From: Nitrospirota bacterium
GTDB taxonomy: Bacteria > Nitrospirota > Thermodesulfovibrionia > UBA6902
Length of the DNA: 64,000 nucleotides
Reading direction: 5' to 3'
Assembly (NCBI GenBank): GCA_016213935.1
Contig: JACQZG010000006.1
Location: forward strand, 60,622-124,621
In this document: positions 5,458 to 57,488 of the stretch, one piece after another
Layout of the letters: each line of letters opens with the position of its first letter
Numbering within the stretch: position 1 is the first letter of the stretch
The notes under the pieces: model-generated
What the model saw: only the letters and a program-made list of their open reading frames with translations
Database searches by the model: none
What the model was told of the DNA's origin: nothing
Made by a program: the position numbers and the translations under genes

Positions 5458-5796
<339 letters not shown>

Positions 5797-6021: not shown

Positions 6022-7137
6022 ATGAAGAAAGAAGAAAAGGGACACAAGCATTTCAGGTGCAGACAGCCCCTTAAGCCTAAGGGCATAAAAAAGGGCATGA
6101 AGGTTGACGATGTCATAGAGAGCGCGATGTTTTCCTTTAACGCCGGGGCGTTCAGAAAGGCATGCGAGCTTTTTGCCGGCCACGTGGTTTCTGAAAATGT
6201 AAGGGTAGGGGTTTCTCTCGCGGGCGCCCTCGTCCCCGCAGGAATAGGCCGGAGCTGCCTCATCCCCCTGATGAAGGCCGGCATGGTTGACTGGATAGTA
6301 TCCACGGGGGCTAACCTCTATCATGACCTTCATCTGATATTAGGATACGATTTCTGCAGGGGGCATGCCGATGCCGATGACACGCAGCTCAGGGAGAAAG
6401 GGATCATCAGGATACATGATATTTTTCTCGATTATGATGCCCTGCTCGATACGGACAGTTTCATAAGAAAGACGATAAGCAATTATTTTTCAGGAAAGGG
6501 CGAGCCCTGCTCGAGCGCCGATATCCATGCGGCCCTCGGAAAAGAGATTATCAGGATAAAGCCGTCTTTAAAGAATGAAAGCGTTTTGGCTGTTGCTTAT
6601 GAATGCGGGATACCTGTTCACACCTCTTCGCCCGCCGATTCGAGCATTGGGATGAATATAGCCGCGCTTATGCTTGAGGAGAAGCCTGTTCCGTTTGATA
6701 CCCATAAAGATGTCAATGAAGTTACGAGCTATGTCTATGACATAAAGAAGAGGGGCGGCGAGAGCGCGGTGCTTTTGCTCGGGGGCGGAAGCCCTAAAAA
6801 CTTTGTGCTCCAGACTGAGCCTCATATACAGGAGGTGCTCGGGCTCCCTGAGTCAGGGCATGACTTCTTTATCCAGTTCACAGACGCGCGGCCGGATACA
6901 GGCGGCCTTAGCGGCGCGACTCCTTCAGAGGCTGTGTCTTGGGGGAAGATAGACCCGAACGCGCTTTCAAAAACAATAGTCTCATACGGCGATTGCAGCC
7001 TGATGCTTCCATTCTTTGTCAGCTACGCGCTGAACAGATCCAAACCCCGCCCGAATTCAAGGCTCTTTGAGAAGAAAGAGAAGCTCGTAAAACAGCTTAA
7101 AGACGATTACAGGAAGAAGGGCAGTTATAAGAAGTAA
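6022..7137 (+). CDS. Deoxyhypusine synthase-like (homospermidine synthase-like) protein
   Basis: ORF features include ...WIVSTGANLYHDL and LLLGGGSPKNF; length and the STGAN motif resemble the DHS family. Assignment is from memory only. Confidence 0.6.
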   Translation: MKKEEKGHKHFRCRQPLKPKGIKKGMKVDDVIESAMFSFNAGAFRKACELFAGHVVSENVRVGVSLAGALVPAGIGRSCLIPLMKAGMVDWIVSTGANLYHDLHLILGYDFCRGHADADDTQLREKGIIRIHDIFLDYDALLDTDSFIRKTISNYFSGKGEPCSSADIHAALGKEIIRIKPSLKNESVLAVAYECGIPVHTSSPADSSIGMNIAALMLEEKPVPFDTHKDVNEVTSYVYDIKKRGGESAVLLLGGGSPKNFVLQTEPHIQEVLGLPESGHDFFIQFTDARPDTGGLSGATPSEAVSWGKIDPNALSKTIVSYGDCSLMLPFFVSYALNRSKPRPNSRLFEKKEKLVKQLKDDYRKKGSYKK

Positions 7138-8031: not shown

Positions 8032-9249
8032 TCACACATTCGTCCTGTGCACGCCGGCGGGGCGCCATGCCGGAGAGATGACCGCGGGGCGTGAAGTATA
8101 CGGCATATAAGCCGCCCATGATACCGTGGAGTCGCCGTGCCTGTCATTGATGCCGTCCGCCGTGTTAAGCAGGTTCTCTTTTTTCAGATGGCCTGAAAGG
8201 AGGTTTAACTGCGCAGGCATCCCCGTTTCCCTTAACCCTGACAGGCTGACGCCGAGAAGCCTTACCGAGTCGCTGAGTTTAATCCCCCTGATTATCTCCA
8301 TCGCGGTGTTGTGTATCTCATGAGTGTCATTGATGTGCCTGTTTATCTTAAGCTGTTTTGTGAATGTCCTGAAGCTCTTGTACCTTATGGTTACAGTCAC
8401 GGTATCGCCCGCGAGTTTATATCTTCTCGCGCGCCTGCCCGCCATTTCAGAAAGCTTAAGCATGTAAGCCTCTATCTCTTCTTCACGCCATATGTCGCGC
8501 GGAAGCGTCATGCTGTGCCCGACCGACTTTGCCGTCTCCTCATTGCTCATCACGGGTGAAGTGTCTATGCCCATTCCCATGAGCTTGAGCCTCTCGCCTA
8601 TTATCCCGAACCGGCTTTTAAGCAGGCTTACGGGCGCCCTGCCGAGTTCACCGCAGGTTCTTATGCCGAGCGCCCCGAGCTTTTCAGCAATCTTTCCGCC
8701 TATTCCCCAAAGCGCGTCAACAGGAAGACGCTCAATCGCCTCCGGTATCTCTTCCTGCCTGATAAATTTCAGCCCGTCAGGTTTTGAGATGTCGCTTGCG
8801 AGCTTTGCCATGAGCTTGTTCGGCCCCATGCCTATCGTGGCGTTAAGCCCGAACCTCTCCTTTATCTCCCTCTTTATCATCTTTCCGATTTCGATCGGGC
8901 TTCCGAAAAGTTTGAGCGAGCCTGTTATGTCGAGAAATGCCTCGTCGATCGAATAGACCTCGACCTCTGAGGTATATTTTGAGTAAATCTCCGTAAGCAT
9001 CCTGCAGGTATGCGTGTATTTGCCGTTGTTTCCCGTGACAAATATCAGTTTTGGGCAGACCTTTTTCGCCTCCCAGACATTCATGCCCGTCTTTACTCCG
9101 AAACTCCTCGCTTCATAAGACGCGGTCGTGATGACAGTTCTCTTTCCCGAACCTATGACAGCCACGGGCTTTCCGCGCAGGGCAGGGTTGCTCTGCTGCT
9201 CCACGGACGCAAAGAATGAATCCATGTCAACAAGCAATATTGTTCTCAT
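8032..9249 (-). CDS. dinB: DNA polymerase IV (Y-family, DinB)
   Basis: MRTILLVDMDSFFASVEQQSNPALRGKPVAV, the SIDEAFLD motif and Y-family palm/fingers blocks. Confidence 0.9.
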   Translation of the reverse strand: MRTILLVDMDSFFASVEQQSNPALRGKPVAVIGSGKRTVITTASYEARSFGVKTGMNVWEAKKVCPKLIFVTGNNGKYTHTCRMLTEIYSKYTSEVEVYSIDEAFLDITGSLKLFGSPIEIGKMIKREIKERFGLNATIGMGPNKLMAKLASDISKPDGLKFIRQEEIPEAIERLPVDALWGIGGKIAEKLGALGIRTCGELGRAPVSLLKSRFGIIGERLKLMGMGIDTSPVMSNEETAKSVGHSMTLPRDIWREEEIEAYMLKLSEMAGRRARRYKLAGDTVTVTIRYKSFRTFTKQLKINRHINDTHEIHNTAMEIIRGIKLSDSVRLLGVSLSGLRETGMPAQLNLLSGHLKKENLLNTADGINDRHGDSTVSWAAYMPYTSRPAVISPAWRPAGVHRTNV

Positions 9250-46153: not shown

Positions 46154-46252
46154 GGGAGCGTATAGGGTTCTGGTGTCTCTCCCGGACTTCAAATCCGGTG
46201 TTGCCTGGCCAAAACCGGGCAGGGTGGGTTCGATTCCCACACGCTCCCGCCA
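46154..46252 (+). tRNA. selC: tRNA-Sec (UCA anticodon), about 99 nt including the encoded CCA
   Basis: GGGAGCG...cggacTTCAAAtccg anticodon loop, a long variable arm and GGGTTCGATTCCCAC T-arm ending CCA; sits 55 nt after selB. Confidence 0.85.
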
Positions 46253-51065: not shown

Positions 51066-51980
51066 TTATTTTTTTAAAAGAACTTTGCCGTAAAGGAGGG
51101 TTTCTATCTCTTCTTCATCAGCTTCAGGCAGGGCAATGTTGTCAAAAAGCTTCCAAGTTTCAACATGCTCTGCCGAAGAGCCCGGAGCCATACTTTTCAG
51201 CGGGGAGAGGGTCTCCATTTCGAGCATGAAATCGTTTACATATGTTTCGTATGAAACTCCGAAATCAGGGTATAAAGACCCTTCCCGATGCTTGCAGTGT
51301 TTGATGAAAAGATGGTTATTATTGAAGTACGCGGCCCAGCCTTTTTCATTTGGGATGCCTAACTTGAACGGCTGCTGTACGGCCGGGTCTTGCCTGAGCA
51401 TTATGTATTTATTTCTCAAAAAAAGCCTCGGGTCGTTTAATTCCGAATACGGCCATAAAGAAATTATCCTGTTAGGAAGCAGGCCGGTATCTTTCCCTGT
51501 ATTCGGGATTATCTCTGTGCCTCCCGTTGCCATAGCGGTCAGGCTCCAGACGGATAATTCAACAGGCGCATTGCCTTTATTGATAAGGCGGTGAAGCAGA
51601 TGCACTTCAGTGCTGTCAGATGACAGCGTGATCTCCATCTCCTTCTTAATACCGGTCAATCTCTCAACATCCTGCGAAAGTTTTATTCCATCTTGAATTT
51701 CATGCCATGCTACAGGCGAATTATCAGGAACATATGTGCGCACTCTGTCTTCGGGGCTGTGCCAGAGGCGATGCCCTCCGTATATCCTCCATTCGTCCCC
51801 TCCGGTCATTCCTTTAGTAGACTTTATAACGCAGAGTTCATTCTTTTTGCCAACGAACCCGTATCTTATTATTCTCGGCCCGACATCAGTTGTTGCCACA
51901 AGGTCAACAACCCCGTTTGAAATCTGAACGCAGTTTTCCCATCCAGCAAATGATATTTTTTTTATGGTCACGTTCGGCAT
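51066..51980 (-). CDS. Hypothetical 304-aa protein
   Basis: Good coding ORF immediately downstream of pilT; no family recognised. Confidence 0.5.
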   Translation of the reverse strand: MPNVTIKKISFAGWENCVQISNGVVDLVATTDVGPRIIRYGFVGKKNELCVIKSTKGMTGGDEWRIYGGHRLWHSPEDRVRTYVPDNSPVAWHEIQDGIKLSQDVERLTGIKKEMEITLSSDSTEVHLLHRLINKGNAPVELSVWSLTAMATGGTEIIPNTGKDTGLLPNRIISLWPYSELNDPRLFLRNKYIMLRQDPAVQQPFKLGIPNEKGWAAYFNNNHLFIKHCKHREGSLYPDFGVSYETYVNDFMLEMETLSPLKSMAPGSSAEHVETWKLFDNIALPEADEEEIETLLYGKVLLKK

Positions 51981-52210
51981 AAGATTTCCCTAAAATTATA
52001 CACATTGTTGCTCAATATAGTTACCTTCATGGTATTGAATTAGCGCATAAGGTATTTACCCTGATAATACGAAGCTATTTACCTGAGGAAGCTGTTTTTG
52101 CCTCTTTCAAAGGCTTCAATTCGGTTTTTTATCAATTCACATTCATTCAACCGTATTTGCACAGCAAAAACTCATTAAAATCAATAGGTTCACAAAATTA
52201 TATTTTTTGC

Positions 52211-52239
52211 TTGACATATACAATATATTGTGGTTTAAT
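52211..52239 (+). promoter_or_regulatory. Putative nrdJ promoter (TTGACA, 17 nt, TTTAAT) with an NrdR box in the spacer
   Basis: ataCAATATATTGtgg at 52218-52233 matches 14 of 16 positions of the NrdR consensus acaCwAtATaTwGtgt; ACAATATATTGT is a perfect 12-bp palindrome. Confidence 0.6.
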
Positions 52240-52372
52240 TTCCTATCTCATCTAAATAGAGTATAATTACTTTGCCACTCTAAAAAATAATATTTGCTGA
52301 ATCAGGCAAACAGCAGGGTGGTTTTATTTTAGAAATCAATTAATATCGTTTAATTTTTTATAAGGAGATGTT

Positions 52373-53767
52373 ATGGCAGAATTATTATCCGGCAAATTGA
52401 ATCTATTGCCAAACGCGTTGAAAGTGATCCAGAAGAGATACTTACGAAAGGATGAAGAAGGCAATGTCATCGAGAGCCCTGATGATATGTTCAGGAGGGT
52501 CGCAAGGGTCATTGCATCCGCAGACGCTAAATTCGGCACATCCGAGCCCAGGATCAAAGAGGTTGAAGAAGAATTTTATAACCTGATTACGTCGCTGAAA
52601 TTTCTGCCGAACAGCCCAACTCTCATGAATGCCGGAAGAAGGCTGGGGCAGCTCTCGGCGTGCTTTGTCCTTCCTGTTGAGGATTCCATGGAATCCATTT
52701 TCGAGGCTGTGAAGAATGCCGCGCTTATCCATAAGTCCGGAGGGGGTACAGGATTCTCTTTTTCAAGGCTCCGGCCAAAGGGCGATATAGTCGGCTCCAC
52801 CAAAGGCGTATCTTCAGGCCCCATCTCATTCATGACGGTCTTTGATTCAGCTACAGAAGCGATTAAGCAGGGCGGTACGAGAAGAGGCGCCAATATGGGC
52901 ATGCTCCGCATTGACCATCCCGACATACTCGAATTTATAACTTCAAAGGATGACTGCAGCAAGCTCAACAATTTCAATATCTCTGTCGCGCTCACCGACG
53001 AATTTATGGATGCCTTTGAAAAAGACGGCGAGTATGAGCTGAAGAATCCGCACGACGGCAAGGCTACGCGCAGGCTGAAGGCAAAATATGTCTTTAATCT
53101 TATCGTAAATCATGCATGGAAGAACGGGGAACCCGGCATAATCTTCCTTGACAGGATGAACAGCGACAACCCTACCCCGGGCATAGGGCAGATCGAGAGC
53201 ACAAATCCATGCGGCGAACAGCCTTTGCTTCCCTACGAATCCTGCAATCTCGGCTCCATAAATCTTTCTAAATTCGTGAAGGGGTTTGAAACATCCGCAG
53301 ATGCAAAAAGTTTCTGCGTTGACTGGGAATCGCTCGGGGAGACGGTGCACTCAGCCGTGCACTTTCTTGACAATGTGATAGAAGTGAACAAGTATCCTAT
53401 CGAGAAGATAGAGGAGATGACAAAGGCCAACAGAAAGATAGGGCTCGGCGTGATGGGGTGGGCGGACATGCTCGTGCAGCTTGGCGTACCCTATAACTCT
53501 GAAGAGGCTATCTTGCTCGGCACGGAAGTAATGAAGTTCATACAGGATGAGGGCAGGAAGATGTCGTCCGAGCTTGCTGAGGAGAGAGGCGTCTTCCCGA
53601 CTCACGGCGAAAGCATTTATAAAGACAGGATGAAGCTCAGAAACGCCACCGTCACGACCATTGCCCCAACCGGCACGCTCTCTATAATAGCAGGCTGTTC
53701 AAGCGGCATAGAGCCTCTCTTTGCGGTATCTTTTGTCCGCAATGTCCTTGAGGGGACAAAACTTTAG
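52373..53767 (+). CDS. nrdJ: Class II (adenosylcobalamin-dependent) ribonucleotide reductase NrdJ, N-terminal 464 codons, ending at an in-frame TAG
   Basis: NrdJ-type N-terminus [24 protein letters not shown]...; terminates ...GTKL* and continues in the same frame (next feature). Confidence 0.85.
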
Positions 53768-53770
53768 GAG

Positions 53771-54658
53771 GTGAATCCCTATTTTGAAAAGATGGCGAGA
53801 GAGAGGGGATTCTGGAGCAGGGAGCTTATTGAGGAGATAGCTGAGAAAGGGACGCTTCACGGAGTTGCCAATGTGCCTGATGATGTGAGAAATATCTTCA
53901 CTACGGCCCACGATATAACTCCTGAAGACCATGTAAGGATGCAGGCCGCGTTTCAGAAGCATGTTGATAACGCTGTTTCAAAGACCGTTAATTTCCCCAA
54001 CAATGCAACTCAAAAAGATGTTGAGAATGTATATCTCCTCGCATATACGCTTGGCTGCAAGGGCGTAACCGTATACAGGGACGGGTCGAGGGAGGAGCAG
54101 GTCCTCTCAACAGGCAAGACTGCGGGCACCGATGAGAAGAAGAGCGACTCGCCCCAGAAGATAGTTCCCAAGAAGAGGCCTGAGACTATTTACGGCACAA
54201 CTACCCTTATGAATACCGGATGCGGCAATCTTTATGTAACCATTAATGAGGACCATAACGGAAACCTTTTCGAACTCTTCACACGCATGGGCAAGGCAGG
54301 AGGCTGCGCGTCAAGCCAGGCAGAGGCGATAGGAAGGCTGGTGAGCCTCGCATTCAGGAGCAATATAGACTCGCATGAGATCGTAAAACAGCTCAGGGGA
54401 ATAAGCTGCCACAGCCCTGCATGGGCAAACGGCGGAAAGATATCCTCATGTTCAGACGCCATATCAAAAGCCATTGAAAGATATGCCGAGCACGGGGATA
54501 AGGCCGACGGCAACGGCAACGGCTCGCACGGCAGGGAGAAGAAGGGGATTAAAGAGAAGATAATATTCTGCGGGGCGTGCCCGGACTGCGGAGGGGCGGT
54601 GGAGCACGAAGGCGGCTGCGCGGTATGCAGGGACTGCGGCTTTACGAAGTGTTATTAG
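53771..54658 (+). CDS. nrdJ: NrdJ C-terminal continuation (295 codons), same frame as the upstream part, includes a C-terminal Cys-rich tail
   Basis: EVNPYFEKMARERGFWSRELIEEIAEKG...VTVYRDGSREEQVL..., ending CGACPDCGGAVEHEGGCAVCRDCG. 53771 minus 52373 is 1398, a multiple of 3. Confidence 0.8.
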   Translation: MNPYFEKMARERGFWSRELIEEIAEKGTLHGVANVPDDVRNIFTTAHDITPEDHVRMQAAFQKHVDNAVSKTVNFPNNATQKDVENVYLLAYTLGCKGVTVYRDGSREEQVLSTGKTAGTDEKKSDSPQKIVPKKRPETIYGTTTLMNTGCGNLYVTINEDHNGNLFELFTRMGKAGGCASSQAEAIGRLVSLAFRSNIDSHEIVKQLRGISCHSPAWANGGKISSCSDAISKAIERYAEHGDKADGNGNGSHGREKKGIKEKIIFCGACPDCGGAVEHEGGCAVCRDCGFTKCY

Positions 54659-54899
54659 TCGGGAAGAGGTAAGGGCACTGAATCAAAACGGCGCAGCAAT
54701 GCAGTATTATGTAAAGTTCGCAGGGGCATGGGGAGCCATGTCCCTGTTTTGCTTTTCCCCTCTAAGAAGAGGGCCTGCCTGCCGGTAGGCAGGGCACAAG
54801 GGTGTGTTTAAATCGGAATCTGTTTTTTGGTCATTCCCGTCAACCTCGGCTGATCCGCTGGGGCGGAAAAACGGGAATCCAGAATAAGGAGGTTATACT

Positions 54900-55964
54900 A
54901 TGGCAACATTCGAACAAGAAGAAGTAGTAAAAAAGGAACTAAAAAATGTTCTTGCAGGTTTATCTCAAATTAATCCTAAAGAGTTAGTTAGAGCAAATGA
55001 GCTTGGAAATGACTTCAACTTTGAGCCCGGTCTTCAAGCATTTGAAAGGACTCTGAAACTTTTTCAAGATCTCCATGAAAGCAATCTCGATAATGTTTCG
55101 CATAATGTATTAAAGACTATTTCAACTAATGCAAAGGATGCGCATGCCAAATTAACTGCTATACAAACATTTTCACCTGCGCAACATCAAAGTCCGTTTA
55201 ATGTCCGCAATGATTTAATTAATCAACTCCGTGATTCATATGATACTTATTTTGCTGCAGTTTCTCCTGTGATTGCTTATTCAATAAGAAAAGGAACAGA
55301 TTTTGGAGCGCTTGAAAAGAAAGCTCAGGAAGCAGTTTCTTCCATGGATGCCTATAATAAAGACCAAATAGAGAAACAAAAACATGTTTCTTCTGAGATG
55401 GAATCAGTACTACAAAAAGTGAGGCAGGCTGCTGCTGAGGTTGGTGTTTCTCAACATGCTACTCATTTTAAAGAAGAAGCACAAAGTCATGAAGTGTCAT
55501 CGAAGAAATGGCTACGGGCAACAATAGTTGCCGCGATACTGACAATTGCATGGGGGATTATATCTTTTTTTATTCACCCAAAAGGACATCCCATAGAGAC
55601 GGATATCTCAACAGCACAAGCAGCTCAATTAATAGCACCATCAACATCACAGGTAATTCAATTTACTGTAGCAAAAATCATAATTCTGTCAGCACTTTAT
55701 TATATTCTTGTTTGGTGTGCAAGAAATTATAATGCACATCTTCACAATTTCGTGGTAAATAAACATAGACAAAATTCACTAAGCACTTTTGAAACATTTG
55801 TTAAAGCTGCAGGAAATGATCAAGATACAAAAAATGCTGTATTGATTCAAGCAACTCAATCAATCTTTTCCGCACAATCAAGTGGATACATCCACAAAGA
55901 ACATGAAGCAGAATCACCCAATAAGTTTATTGAGATATTGCGAGGAACTGGACAAAGAACGTAG
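54900..55964 (+). CDS. Hypothetical protein (354 aa) with a long N-terminal helical/coiled-coil region and two TM helices; AT-rich
   Basis: TM helices LRATIVAAILTIAWGIISFFI and VAKIIILSALYYILVWCA; codon usage differs from its neighbours. Confidence 0.5.
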   Translation: MATFEQEEVVKKELKNVLAGLSQINPKELVRANELGNDFNFEPGLQAFERTLKLFQDLHESNLDNVSHNVLKTISTNAKDAHAKLTAIQTFSPAQHQSPFNVRNDLINQLRDSYDTYFAAVSPVIAYSIRKGTDFGALEKKAQEAVSSMDAYNKDQIEKQKHVSSEMESVLQKVRQAAAEVGVSQHATHFKEEAQSHEVSSKKWLRATIVAAILTIAWGIISFFIHPKGHPIETDISTAQAAQLIAPSTSQVIQFTVAKIIILSALYYILVWCARNYNAHLHNFVVNKHRQNSLSTFETFVKAAGNDQDTKNAVLIQATQSIFSAQSSGYIHKEHEAESPNKFIEILRGTGQRT

Positions 55965-55985
55965 AATCATAATGTAAAAGAAACC

Positions 55986-56138
55986 TATGACCCCTTCTAC
56001 CACCATAATCATCGGCGATAGCAGGAGAATGGATGAACTCAAAGATGAATCCGTTCATCTCGTCATTACTTCTCCGCCTTACTGGCAGTTGAAAGACTAC
56101 GGTAACGGAAGCCAGATAGGGTTTAATGAAAGCTATTA
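55986..56138 (+). pseudogene. N-terminal 50-codon fragment of an N6/N4 DNA methyltransferase
   Basis: MTPSTTIIIGDSRRMDELKDESVHLVITSPPYWQLKDYGNGSQIGFNESY* has the typical MTase N-terminus with the (S/D)PPY motif, then an immediate stop. Confidence 0.6.
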
Positions 56139-56149
56139 GGATTTAATAG

Positions 56150-56458
56150 ATGGGAACAGAAGACGATTTAGAGTTTCTTAAGGTTTTTCCTAAAAATGCG
56201 AACGATATGTATGTAGTTTATGACCGATTTACATTTGATGATCTTTTTCGATCATTGCTTGCAAATGGTTATTATCATGAAGATGCCATGTATTTCATGT
56301 TGGCTAATTGTTCAATGAGTGCGATTGTTTTTCAGGAAAGGCTTCATAATAGGAAATATCGAAAACTTAAAGCAGAGGATACACTACCGTCTAATGAGGC
56401 TGATTGGAAGAGAAAAGTTATTAATGATTTTATTGAGGTAGCAAGAGCATGTGATTAA
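56150..56458 (+). CDS. Hypothetical 102-aa protein (AT-rich)
   Basis: ORF only. Confidence 0.3.
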   Translation: MGTEDDLEFLKVFPKNANDMYVVYDRFTFDDLFRSLLANGYYHEDAMYFMLANCSMSAIVFQERLHNRKYRKLKAEDTLPSNEADWKRKVINDFIEVARACD

Positions 56459-56557
56459 TAAACTGGACTCCTGTTTTCACGGAAGTGACTTTCTCTCACA
56501 GGAATATAGGAGATAAGATAAATTAAAGAAAACTTTTAAAACAAGAGGAGGCACACA

Positions 56558-56848
56558 ATGGCGAATAAACCGAATGAGATACGGATCGCTATCCCGCCCG
56601 ATGTGCAGGCCGGAGTTTACGCGAACAGCATGACAATCACTCACACGAAAGAGGAATTCATAATGGATTTCGCGCTCGTGACCCCGCCTGCGGGCACTGT
56701 GAACGCGAGGGTTATCACAAGCCCGGGGCATGTAAAGCGCATAATATCCGCCCTGCGCGAGAATGTCCGCAGGTATGAGGCACAATTCGGCGTTATCTCC
56801 GAGGCGGCCGAGCCGAAGGGCAAGGGGCCGATAGGGTTTAATGCGTAG
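56558..56848 (+). CDS. Conserved hypothetical protein, possibly DUF3467
   Basis: MANKPNEIRIAIPPDVQAGVYANSMTITHTKEEFIMDF... preceded by a strong GGAGG RBS. Confidence 0.5.
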   Translation: MANKPNEIRIAIPPDVQAGVYANSMTITHTKEEFIMDFALVTPPAGTVNARVITSPGHVKRIISALRENVRRYEAQFGVISEAAEPKGKGPIGFNA

Positions 56849-57047
56849 CAAATGAGGCAGTATTCCTCTATTGTCTGATATAATTGATGGCTTAAAAACA
56901 TTTCGTCATTGACCAAAAATACCTCTCTTTAGCAAAGAGGGGTCAGGGAGATTTTATGAATAAATAAATCCCCCTTCATCCCCCTTTTACAAAGGGTGAG
57001 TACATGTTAGCTTGCGGGAATGACGGAGAAGGAGCGGAAATTTTTCA

Positions 57048-57488
57048 ATGCGCCCGGAATGGGATGATTATTTCATAGAGATAGCAAAGGTCGTATCTTC
57101 GAGGTCAACATGCCTCAGGAGGAGATACGGCGCGGTTATTGTAAAAGACAAGGTGATAATAAGCACCGGATATAACGGCTCGCCCCGCGGCATAGACAAC
57201 TGCATAGACCTCGGCAGGTGCGTTAGGAAGGAGCAGAACATTCCCTCGGGTGAGAGGTATGAACTCTGCGAGGCCGTGCATGCCGAGCAGAATGCCATAA
57301 TCAACGCCCCGCCCGAACGGATGAAAGACGCTGTCATATATATCGCCGGTTTTGAGGAAGATAAAAGCTTTGCCAACGGTATGCCGTGCAAACTCTGCAG
57401 CCGGATGATACGGAACTCGCAGATTAAAGAGGTCATATACCTCAAGAGCGGCGGCGGGCTTGAACGCGTTGATGTGCAGAACCTTTGA
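57048..57488 (+). CDS. dCMP deaminase (ComEB-like cytidine/deoxycytidylate deaminase)
   Basis: HAEQNAI zinc motif and PCKLCSRMI. Confidence 0.85.
   Translation: MRPEWDDYFIEIAKVVSSRSTCLRRRYGAVIVKDKVIISTGYNGSPRGIDNCIDLGRCVRKEQNIPSGERYELCEAVHAEQNAIINAPPERMKDAVIYIAGFEEDKSFANGMPCKLCSRMIRNSQIKEVIYLKSGGGLERVDVQNL

Follow-up and report, generated by a model that had tools for sequence, protein, structure and literature searches.

PrrC, encoded within EcoprrI, is the analogue of a guard for immunity based on DNA modification. Genes embedded within bacteriophage exclusion (BREX) and type I restriction-modification (R-M) systems have been found to be enriched for defense genes (10.1101/2024.01.29.577857), and DUF6161 proteins of Pseudomonadota were listed by a language model as defense candidates without known homology (10.1101/2025.01.08.631966). 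The locus examined here lies in a stretch of 64,000 nucleotides (nt) of Nitrospirota contig JACQZG010000006.1, the whole of which is called the window. Between nrdJ and a DUF3467 gene, the window contains an AT-rich islet (54800-56540, no strand assigned; delimited by composition and by similarity to the related locus L001) with three open reading frames (ORFs), all on the plus strand. These encode an intact 354-aa membrane protein with two transmembrane (TM) helices, here called the 2-TM protein (54900-55964), a 50-codon methylase stub ending in TAG (55987-56139), and a conserved small protein of 102 aa, orf102 (56150-56458). With moderate confidence, the islet is interpreted as the residue of a horizontally mobile R-M or defense cluster at a variable spot 3' of nrdJ, and the 2-TM protein as a stand-alone, defense-associated membrane protein.

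A sequence-only reading of the window had described AT-rich DNA between nrdJ and a DUF3467-like gene, and this was borne out. The GC content was 0.34 to 0.385 throughout 54800-56600 (400-nt windows), compared with 0.46 to 0.56 on either side and a mean of 0.472 for the window. At third codon positions, the GC content (GC3) amounted to 0.21 in the 2-TM gene and 0.24 in orf102, compared with 0.50 to 0.69 for the neighboring genes, so that the islet deviates in both measures. The identity of both neighbors was confirmed with Pfam, nrdJ matching Ribonuc_red_lgN, Ribonuc_red_lgC, and TSCPD and the 3' gene matching DUF3467 (E 8e-19). The ORFs of 354, 50, and 102 aa were likewise present where they had been placed.

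The 2-TM protein and its family

Hydropathy peaks placed the TM helices at residues ~203 to 228 (TM1) and ~251 to 275 (TM2), and the AlphaFold2 (AF2) model was all-helical, with a mean predicted local distance difference test (pLDDT) score of 82 and values of >90 over residues 1 to 130. The long helical N-terminal region and the two TM helices that had been read from the sequence were thus both recovered. In the model, a helical-bundle N-domain (residues ~1 to 132) is followed by very long helices (135 to 224 and 249 to 304) that form a membrane hairpin and a cytoplasmic stalk. Because there is no signal peptide and basic residues are found at the cytoplasmic ends of both TM helices, both termini are predicted to be cytoplasmic. 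Across the family, several conserved blocks fall within the N-terminal 135 residues, a conserved amphipathic helix precedes TM1 (LEKVRQAAAEVGVAQHA.HF), and a nearly invariant segment directly follows TM2 (A.RHN.VVNKHRQNALSTFETFVKAA.D..TKNAVL.QAT.SIF), the conserved residues after TM2 being H282, N283, N287, H289, R290, N292, D307, and K311. The most variable region of the alignment was the loop between the TM helices. Structure searches against the PDB returned generic helical matches only.

The family is large. At least 427 close homologues of ~340 aa aligned end to end at 42 to 95% identity, and a profile search of 1.84 billion cluster representatives returned 4,442 clusters at 50% identity with E ≤1e-3, and 1,821 with E ≤1e-30. 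A scan of 185,579 species representatives found 77 loci in more than 20 phyla. Cultured carriers include Flavobacterium stagni (L027), Kordia algicida OT-1 (L040), Pontimicrobium, Gilvibacter, and Daejeonella. Profile searches of the 354-aa and 102-aa proteins, which had been suggested earlier as a check, gave a divided outcome: no family in Pfam, NCBIfam, PADLOC, or PHROGs was assigned to the 354-aa protein, which was linked remotely to DUF6161 through its relatives, and no PADLOC family was assigned to the 102-aa protein. For a weak match to the Pfam family 8xMP, the literature gave no lead.

The link to DUF6161 (PF19658) was found in other members of the family. The window protein itself had no match to this model at E ≤1, the gathering score being 27 bits. 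Family member P0103 passed it with 32.4 versus 27 bits over residues 148 to 321 (profile positions 47 to 214 of 216), a region that spans the pre-TM helix, both TM helices, and the conserved C-terminal helix. DUF6161 is the sole family model passed by any member; some signal for it was seen in 3 of the 118 members scanned, the two besides P0103 at E ~0.004. A protein from a Piscirickettsia plasmid has only the C-terminal 2-TM module in common with the family (hhalign 97.4%, E 9e-12) and carries a different N terminus. The C-terminal 2-TM module thus appears to be related to DUF6161, remotely and as judged from few members. Since the C-terminal module alone matches both DUF6161 (in P0103) and the Piscirickettsia protein, the architecture is concluded to be modular, with a conserved DUF6161-like 2-TM module joined to what appears to be a family-specific N-domain.

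A SLATT-like architecture, which had been proposed speculatively for the 2-TM protein, found no sequence support. The window protein had no match to the SLATT Pfam models (PF18181 and related), and among the 118 members scanned (sets of 40 and 78) there were no matches in the first set and one in the second, to SLATT_1 at E 0.002, below threshold. Among the top Pfam families listed for genes within two positions of the 2-TM gene, covering at least 75 loci, SMODS, SLOG, and other nucleotide-signaling families were absent.

Genomic neighborhoods of the family

To survey the neighborhoods, the two genes on each side of the focal gene were taken from the 77 loci, and their ORFs were clustered and scanned with Pfam. 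On the 3' side, the families recovered were N6_N4_Mtase (6), Methylase_S (3), HNH_2 (3), Eco57I (2), and one each of BsobI, N6_Mtase, and C5 methylase. On the 5' side they were N6_Mtase (4), ResIII (4, two of them RecG helicases), and two each of Eco57I, MmeI_Mtase, Methylase_S, integrase, and SLFN/AlbA_2. With both sides summed, R-M families were the commonest (N6_N4_Mtase, 6; N6_Mtase, 5; Methylase_S, 5; Eco57I, 4). A control set of 145 genes from the same loci, each at a distance of more than 5 kb, contained no R-M family with two or more members, and the 25 families listed for it included none.

Individual loci gave a more detailed picture. In L008, the 2-TM gene follows a PstI-type methylase and endonuclease and precedes a BsobI-type methylase and endonuclease and then a 421-aa methylase, while in L005 and L009 it is followed by an HNH_2 endonuclease and two methylases. 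EcoO109I-type endonucleases were found in L037 and L039, and C5 methylases in L011, L019, and L039. In L017 and L065, the gene lies within type I hsdR/hsdM/hsdS operons. In L046, the order is BrxC, 2-TM gene, a 200-aa ORF, and BrxX/PglX, as identified by PDB sequence matches (E 7e-14 for BrxC and 8e-44 for BrxX/PglX), with gaps of 19 and 26 nt and one 4-nt overlap; a similar order of BrxC-like gene, 2-TM gene, and PglX-like gene was seen in L035. Where the 2-TM gene lies within a type I R-M or BREX operon, it has the same strand as its neighbors, with gaps of 19 to 37 nt or overlaps. A further context was provided by Vibrio tubiashii plasmid pFP31 (L176), on which a full-length homologue (WP_272788435.1; 30% identical) is part of a cassette array with Hhe, a HEPN-associated protein, a GIY-YIG nuclease, and AbiH, the cassettes being set apart by attC-like repeats of ~130 nt. 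The defense context suspected for the 2-TM protein is therefore well supported by neighborhoods elsewhere, in type I and type II R-M loci, BREX loci, and an integron array.

Some additional observations were made on these loci. Directly after the 2-TM gene, L017 and L065 share an ORF (L017:9082-9717, 211 aa; L065:9036-9935, 299 aa; N terminus MKEDILEQ…) for which no Pfam or PDB match was found; L017 and L065 come from different phyla, and in that subgroup the 2-TM gene may have this ORF as its partner. On pFP31, the 2-TM homologue and the GIY-YIG gene apparently share one integron cassette (L176:6995-8790), with a weak attC-like copy at 6888-6927 and a full copy at 8795-8928. A second family copy in L066 was dropped, as the 320-aa ORF that had clustered with the family was an apparent single-linkage artifact.

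The contexts described above are consistent with the 2-TM protein being a stand-alone, defense-associated membrane protein that would constitute the selected cargo of the islet. In such a protein, the conserved C-terminal 2-TM-plus-helix module would be the effector part, and the N-terminal helical bundle would be the sensing or regulatory part. Its action, put forward strictly as a hypothesis, could be a phage-triggered change at the inner membrane, either a permeabilization of the abortive-infection type or a block of DNA entry.

Several points weigh against this interpretation. The case for a defense role of the family rests on genome context and not on experiments. The window protein matched nothing in PADLOC-DB v2 (E ≤1) or PHROGs, and in Pfam and NCBIfam nothing was found below E 0.03 or near a curated cutoff. 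An approximate count based on the cluster and Pfam tables put the share of loci with a nearby R-M or BREX gene at only some one-fifth to one-quarter; the ORFs of the surveyed loci were our own crude picks, and the per-locus counts are approximate, the Pfam output giving family counts rather than assignments. Many loci have a housekeeping character, with ribonucleotide reductase (RNR), malate/lactate dehydrogenase (Ldh_1 domains), RecG, and tRNA synthetases, and no conserved partner gene was found across the surveyed loci. The window copy now stands without a functional defense partner, and a search of the spacer upstream of it found no sigma-70-like promoter.

These points bear most directly on an alternative in which the 2-TM protein would serve as an accessory membrane protein, for example in stress, envelope function, or transport, with no part in defense, and would merely share variable regions and cassettes with R-M genes. 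The majority of neighborhoods have no recognizable defense gene, class II RNR, RecG, and Ldh_1 proteins recur as neighbors, and neither a PADLOC match nor a conserved partner argues otherwise. This alternative is considered unlikely but deserves the most weight among those examined. Compared with genes at distances above 5 kb, those beside the 2-TM gene are enriched in R-M families, the pFP31 homologue stands among Hhe and AbiH genes in an integron array, and in type I R-M and BREX operons the gene sits on the same strand with gaps of 19 to 37 nt or overlaps; given so tight a placement, a shared hot spot alone is hard to accept.

By analogy with PrrC, the 2-TM protein might instead act as a guard that, on sensing that a phage has inhibited the R-M or BREX system next to it, kills or arrests the cell via the membrane. 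The specific embedding in type I R-M, type II R-M, and BREX loci is what such a guard would lead one to expect, as is the fact that in the window, L001, and L007, the 5' end of one and the same methylase remains attached to the 2-TM gene. Purifying selection nevertheless persists in many copies without an intact R-M partner, including that of the window, and the partners are of unrelated types, so that guarding of this kind seems rather improbable. A still less probable role is that of an inner-membrane protein of the superinfection-exclusion type, which would block phage DNA entry without killing. The predicted inner-membrane hairpin, with a short periplasmic loop in which the family alignment varies most, would suit this role, and one homologue, 30% identical, was found in a metagenomic siphovirus; yet none was found in 50,697 phage records, and the conserved parts of the protein are predicted to be cytoplasmic rather than periplasmic.

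Decay of the methylase cassette and transfer of the islet

The interpretation of the islet as the residue of a mobile R-M or defense cluster is based in part on the methylase stub. The methyltransferase N terminus that had been noticed in the sequence, stopping after 50 codons, was confirmed by a match to the PADLOC family MTase_II PDLC03259 (E 1.2e-18, profile positions 3 to 49 of 423); against PF01555 the stub scored 12.9 bits, under the cutoff of 26.7. Catalytic motif IV ((S/D)PPY) is present as TSPPYW. The S-adenosylmethionine-binding motif I (FxGxG) and the full catalytic domain are absent, the stub ending at codon 50. A search of relatives for the full-length gene, also suggested earlier, recovered a 421-aa N6_N4 methylase in L008, a Nitrospirota metagenome-assembled genome (MAG) (L008:11544-12809; PF01555 plus an SNase-like C-terminal region), to whose first 50 residues the stub is 81% identical (L008:11559-11702). 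The match of the C-terminal region to staphylococcal nuclease (SNase) is weak (E 4.5e-6), and the fusion is unusual. When the 421-aa protein was searched with tblastn against the 64-kb window, residues 6 to 58 were matched and nothing else; the gene is therefore truly truncated rather than split. No endonuclease ORF was found within 54700-56540. Cut before motif I and the target-recognition region, and with no cognate endonuclease, the stub is nonfunctional, and on the sequence evidence it is a dead remnant of a type II beta-class N4/N6 DNA methyltransferase.

The sequence-only reading had taken the fragment as a sign of a former R-M or BREX/DISARM-like system. The R-M part of that proposal held, as the full methylase gene and restriction enzymes still adjoin the same 2-TM gene in relatives (L008, L005, and L009), the enzymes found in relatives being of BsobI, PstI-type, HNH_2, EcoO109I, or MjaI families. 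The BREX/DISARM part did not: the stub resembles type II methylases and not PglX or the methylases of DISARM, and the islet contains no PglX/BrxX methylase and no BrxC, PglZ, or DrmA-type partner.

Comparison of the related loci gave a graded series. The methylase is intact (421 aa) in L008 and broken at residues 51 and 244 in L173. L084 has the stub, a 362-aa ORF, and orf100; in L085/86, the stub is frameshifted and is followed by an unrelated small ORF and then orf100; and in the window, orf102 comes after the stub. The stub is reduced to about 21 codons in L007 and to about 15 in L001, which lacks orf102. In the Ignavibacteriaceae contigs L173 to L175, methylase residues 1 to 244 are followed by a 362-aa ORF (71% identical to its L084 counterpart), an orf102-like ORF of 84 aa, and RE_MjaI. 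The 362-aa ORF of L084 bears a putative PD-(D/E)xK-like motif, recognized by eye. Together these arrangements support the decay of a single cassette that would have run from methylase through the 362-aa putative nuclease to orf102. Being distributed across contigs, the series indicates that the erosion is old, shared, and continuing rather than purely local.

The third ORF was not found to be debris, since orf102 is a conserved small gene with 20 homologues of ~100 aa (52 to 75% identity; dN/dS 0.10 to 0.20), one of them an exact match to the NCBI Nitrospirae MAG protein HY809_01625. In L087/L088, it lies just 3' of an Eco57I-type methylase, an N6_N4 methylase, and a PLD-type nuclease. In L084, its homologue follows the same methylase stub and the 362-aa ORF, and in L085/L086 the same stub and a 72-aa zinc-ribbon ORF. 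This small gene would thus move along with the same methylase/nuclease cassette, at its 3' edge. No family in PADLOC-DB v2.0.0 matched it at E ≤1, and its AF2 model (pLDDT 62) was too poor for a structure search. Hence, of the eroded locus that had been proposed, erosion applies to the methylase, as seen in the comparative series, and not to orf102, which is conserved, or to the 2-TM gene, which is intact and under purifying selection.

An alternative for the stub is that it is no debris, being either a maintained small ORF or the start of a gene read through its TAG. The stubs of the window, L084 (L084:2438-2602), and L085 (L085:22-174) differ mostly synonymously (dN/dS 0.04 to 0.05), and window nrdJ likewise has an in-frame TAG. 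In L173 (L173:4001-4153), TAG occurs at the identical methylase codon (GFNESY*), and the frame stays open for ~190 more codons that are 80% identical to L008. The window, by contrast, has nothing methylase-like more than 3 to 4 codons past the TAG, and TAG is the normal stop of 9 of 46 long ORFs. A low dN/dS would equally result if the copies had diverged before each was truncated independently, and the N-terminal fragments in the database break variously, at residues 40 to 88, with L001 and L007 keeping ~15 to 21 codons. A functional stub is accordingly very improbable.

The database search with the stub returned 124 matches, of which the 120 listed were all of 34 to 88 aa, from many phyla and some on contigs of >100 kb. 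As the full-length L008 methylase was not returned, this search favors short proteins, a bias that explains part of the result but not all of it. A recombination hot spot near methylase codon ~50 was considered and largely rejected, given the many positions at which the fragments end. L169 again has this methylase stub shortly after nrdJ, the two being separated by a different 305-aa gene.

That the islet has moved between genomes is indicated by comparison with L001, which encodes a 95%-identical 2-TM protein and has the same downstream order as the window (DUF3467, dCMP deaminase, hydrolase, AdoHcyase, MetK, and UvrA). By blastn, window positions 54868-56029 were 94% identical to L001, compared with 72 to 78% for the flanking genes. 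The synonymous divergence (dS, by Nei-Gojobori counting) was 0.12 for the 2-TM gene, compared with 0.76, 1.2, 2.4, 2.4, and 1.4 for five flanking genes (DUF3467, dCMP deaminase, hydrolase, AdoHcyase, and MetK). It follows from this difference that the islet was exchanged horizontally and recently, long after the host genomes diverged, and the simplest inference is transfer by homologous recombination through the flanks. The dN/dS of the 2-TM gene was 0.21 against L001 and 0.16 against L007, so that the gene is evidently intact and under purifying selection. The gene was split or truncated in L018, L019, L064, and L071 (with ORFs such as 132+166, 182, 107+239, and 134+116 aa, by crude ORF calling), which fits frequent loss of an accessory gene.

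For synteny, 80 nrdJ-bearing metagenome contigs were examined. The closest, L091, L094, and L095, carry pilT, a 304-aa gene, nrdJ, dCMP deaminase, and the hydrolase; between nrdJ and dCMP deaminase they have an RlpA-like gene (identified by eye) and no 2-TM homologue. In L008, the 2-TM gene is located elsewhere, past the deaminase and within a larger island. Both this absence and the contrast in GC and GC3 set the 354-aa protein apart from a core protein of relatives without compositional deviation, the finding that had been named as speaking against the earlier reading. That the islet is instead native and vertically inherited, its AT-richness due to weak expression or relaxed selection alone, with the 354-aa protein being encoded by a core gene of the lineage, is scarcely credible: although L001 has the same gene before DUF3467 and a common downstream order, the dS values already contradict it, the gene is missing from three syntenic contigs and differently placed in L008, and only 77 of the 185,579 species representatives, scattered over many phyla, carry it.

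The islet does not have the makeup of an integrative mobile element, which would be marked by an integrase or transposase, a flanking tRNA gene, or terminal direct repeats. None of its ORFs is an integrase, the nearest tRNA gene (tRNA-Sec, anticodon TCA, 46154-46252) is 8 kb away, and no flanking direct repeats of >25 nt were found and none brackets the islet. A class II RNR large-subunit gene lies within ~4.2 kb of the 2-TM gene in 5 of ~78 loci, three of Nitrospirota and two of Bacteroidota (the window, 52373-54658, and L008, L019, L050, and L055); this might reflect a recurrent hot spot in the DNA 3' of RNR or else a functional link with the 2-TM gene.

The spacer between nrdJ and the 2-TM gene contains several signals. 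A terminator-like hairpin with a T-run (54720-54747, plus strand; 12-pair stem with 7 GC pairs, tail TTTGCTTTTC), which had not been described before, is probably the nrdJ terminator and lies on the native, GC-rich side of the spacer, the GC content there still being 0.475 to 0.56. Both inverted repeats reported earlier were present: a near-perfect palindrome (54774-54793, no strand; CCTGCCTGCC/GGTAGGCAGG, 10-nt arms, 90% complementary) and an 8-nt inverted repeat with a 30-nt loop (54833-54840 and 54871-54878, no strand; ATTCCCGT...ACGGGAAT, read by eye). The latter lies just 5' of the ribosome-binding site of the 2-TM gene, and the L001-like tract (94%) begins within it, at 54868. A Shine-Dalgarno sequence, AAGGAGG (54886-54892, plus strand), was read 7 nt 5' of the ATG. 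As no Rfam family matched 51900-57100 at E ≤1, the repeats correspond to no known riboswitch or small RNA.

The in-frame TAG of nrdJ (53765-53767; …GTKL*EVNPYFEK…) divides the gene into ORFs of 464 and 295 aa in the same frame. In relatives, nrdJ is a single ORF of 740 to 840 aa, and the codon in question specifies Tyr (TAT/TAC), Leu, Ile, or Val. In the window, the stop overlaps with an AGGAGG motif. The TAG could be a nonsense mutation, an assembly error, or the mark of a split gene. Reassignment of TAG, raised by the in-frame TAGs in nrdJ and the methylase, was rejected, as the nine long ORFs that end in TAG include nrdJ and the 2-TM gene. Elsewhere in the window, a further AT-rich stretch (GC 0.30 to 0.37) between the 304-aa gene and nrdJ (51800-52400) is presumably the first islet of the sequence-only reading or an nrdJ regulatory region, and a tmRNA gene (tag peptide ANTELALAA) was found at 5458-5796.

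Significance and comparison with known systems

The islet itself represents ordinary R-M gene flux and decay. The locus offers a clean natural decay series of an R-M cassette, and it exemplifies how genomes that have diverged can exchange a candidate defense gene at one and the same position in the chromosome. As a new single-gene defense candidate, the 2-TM family is plausible and one of many to come from guilt-by-embedding. It is very large, yet the window sequence matches none of the curated libraries searched, and its genomic habit fits a pattern that has repeatedly led to new anti-phage systems. More broadly, and tentatively, the family could comprise widespread single-gene, membrane-acting anti-phage systems in which a C-terminal DUF6161-like effector is combined with exchangeable N-terminal sensors, perhaps as a backup to R-M and BREX. 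If so, it may provide a second line of defense once phages disable those systems. Its presence in cultured, tractable bacteria (Kordia algicida, Flavobacterium stagni, and Vibrio tubiashii) makes the hypothesis directly testable.

With type II beta-class N4/N6 methyltransferases (PF01555; PDLC03259), the stub shares the N-terminal 50 residues, including the SPPY of motif IV, and differs in having lost motif I, the target-recognition region, and the cognate endonuclease. SLATT proteins and the 2-TM family are alike in their two TM helices with cytoplasmic helical extensions and in their conflict-system neighborhoods, but the hairpin of the 2-TM family lies C-terminal to a large helical domain, and the family was not linked to SMODS or SLOG genes in the loci examined. 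The likeness to DUF6161, an uncharacterized family, is remote and extends over the 2-TM module and the conserved C-terminal helix, whereas the 2-TM family has an additional conserved N-terminal helical bundle of ~135 residues. In sequence, the 2-TM protein has no similarity to PrrC or to the PADLOC-DB v2 models, including the PDC candidates, and unlike PrrC it is membrane borne, without a nuclease or ATPase domain. In its genomic setting, it shares with PrrC in EcoprrI and with the other genes embedded in type I R-M and BREX systems, the basis of guilt-by-embedding (Payne et al., 10.1101/2024.01.29.577857), the same tight, same-strand insertion.

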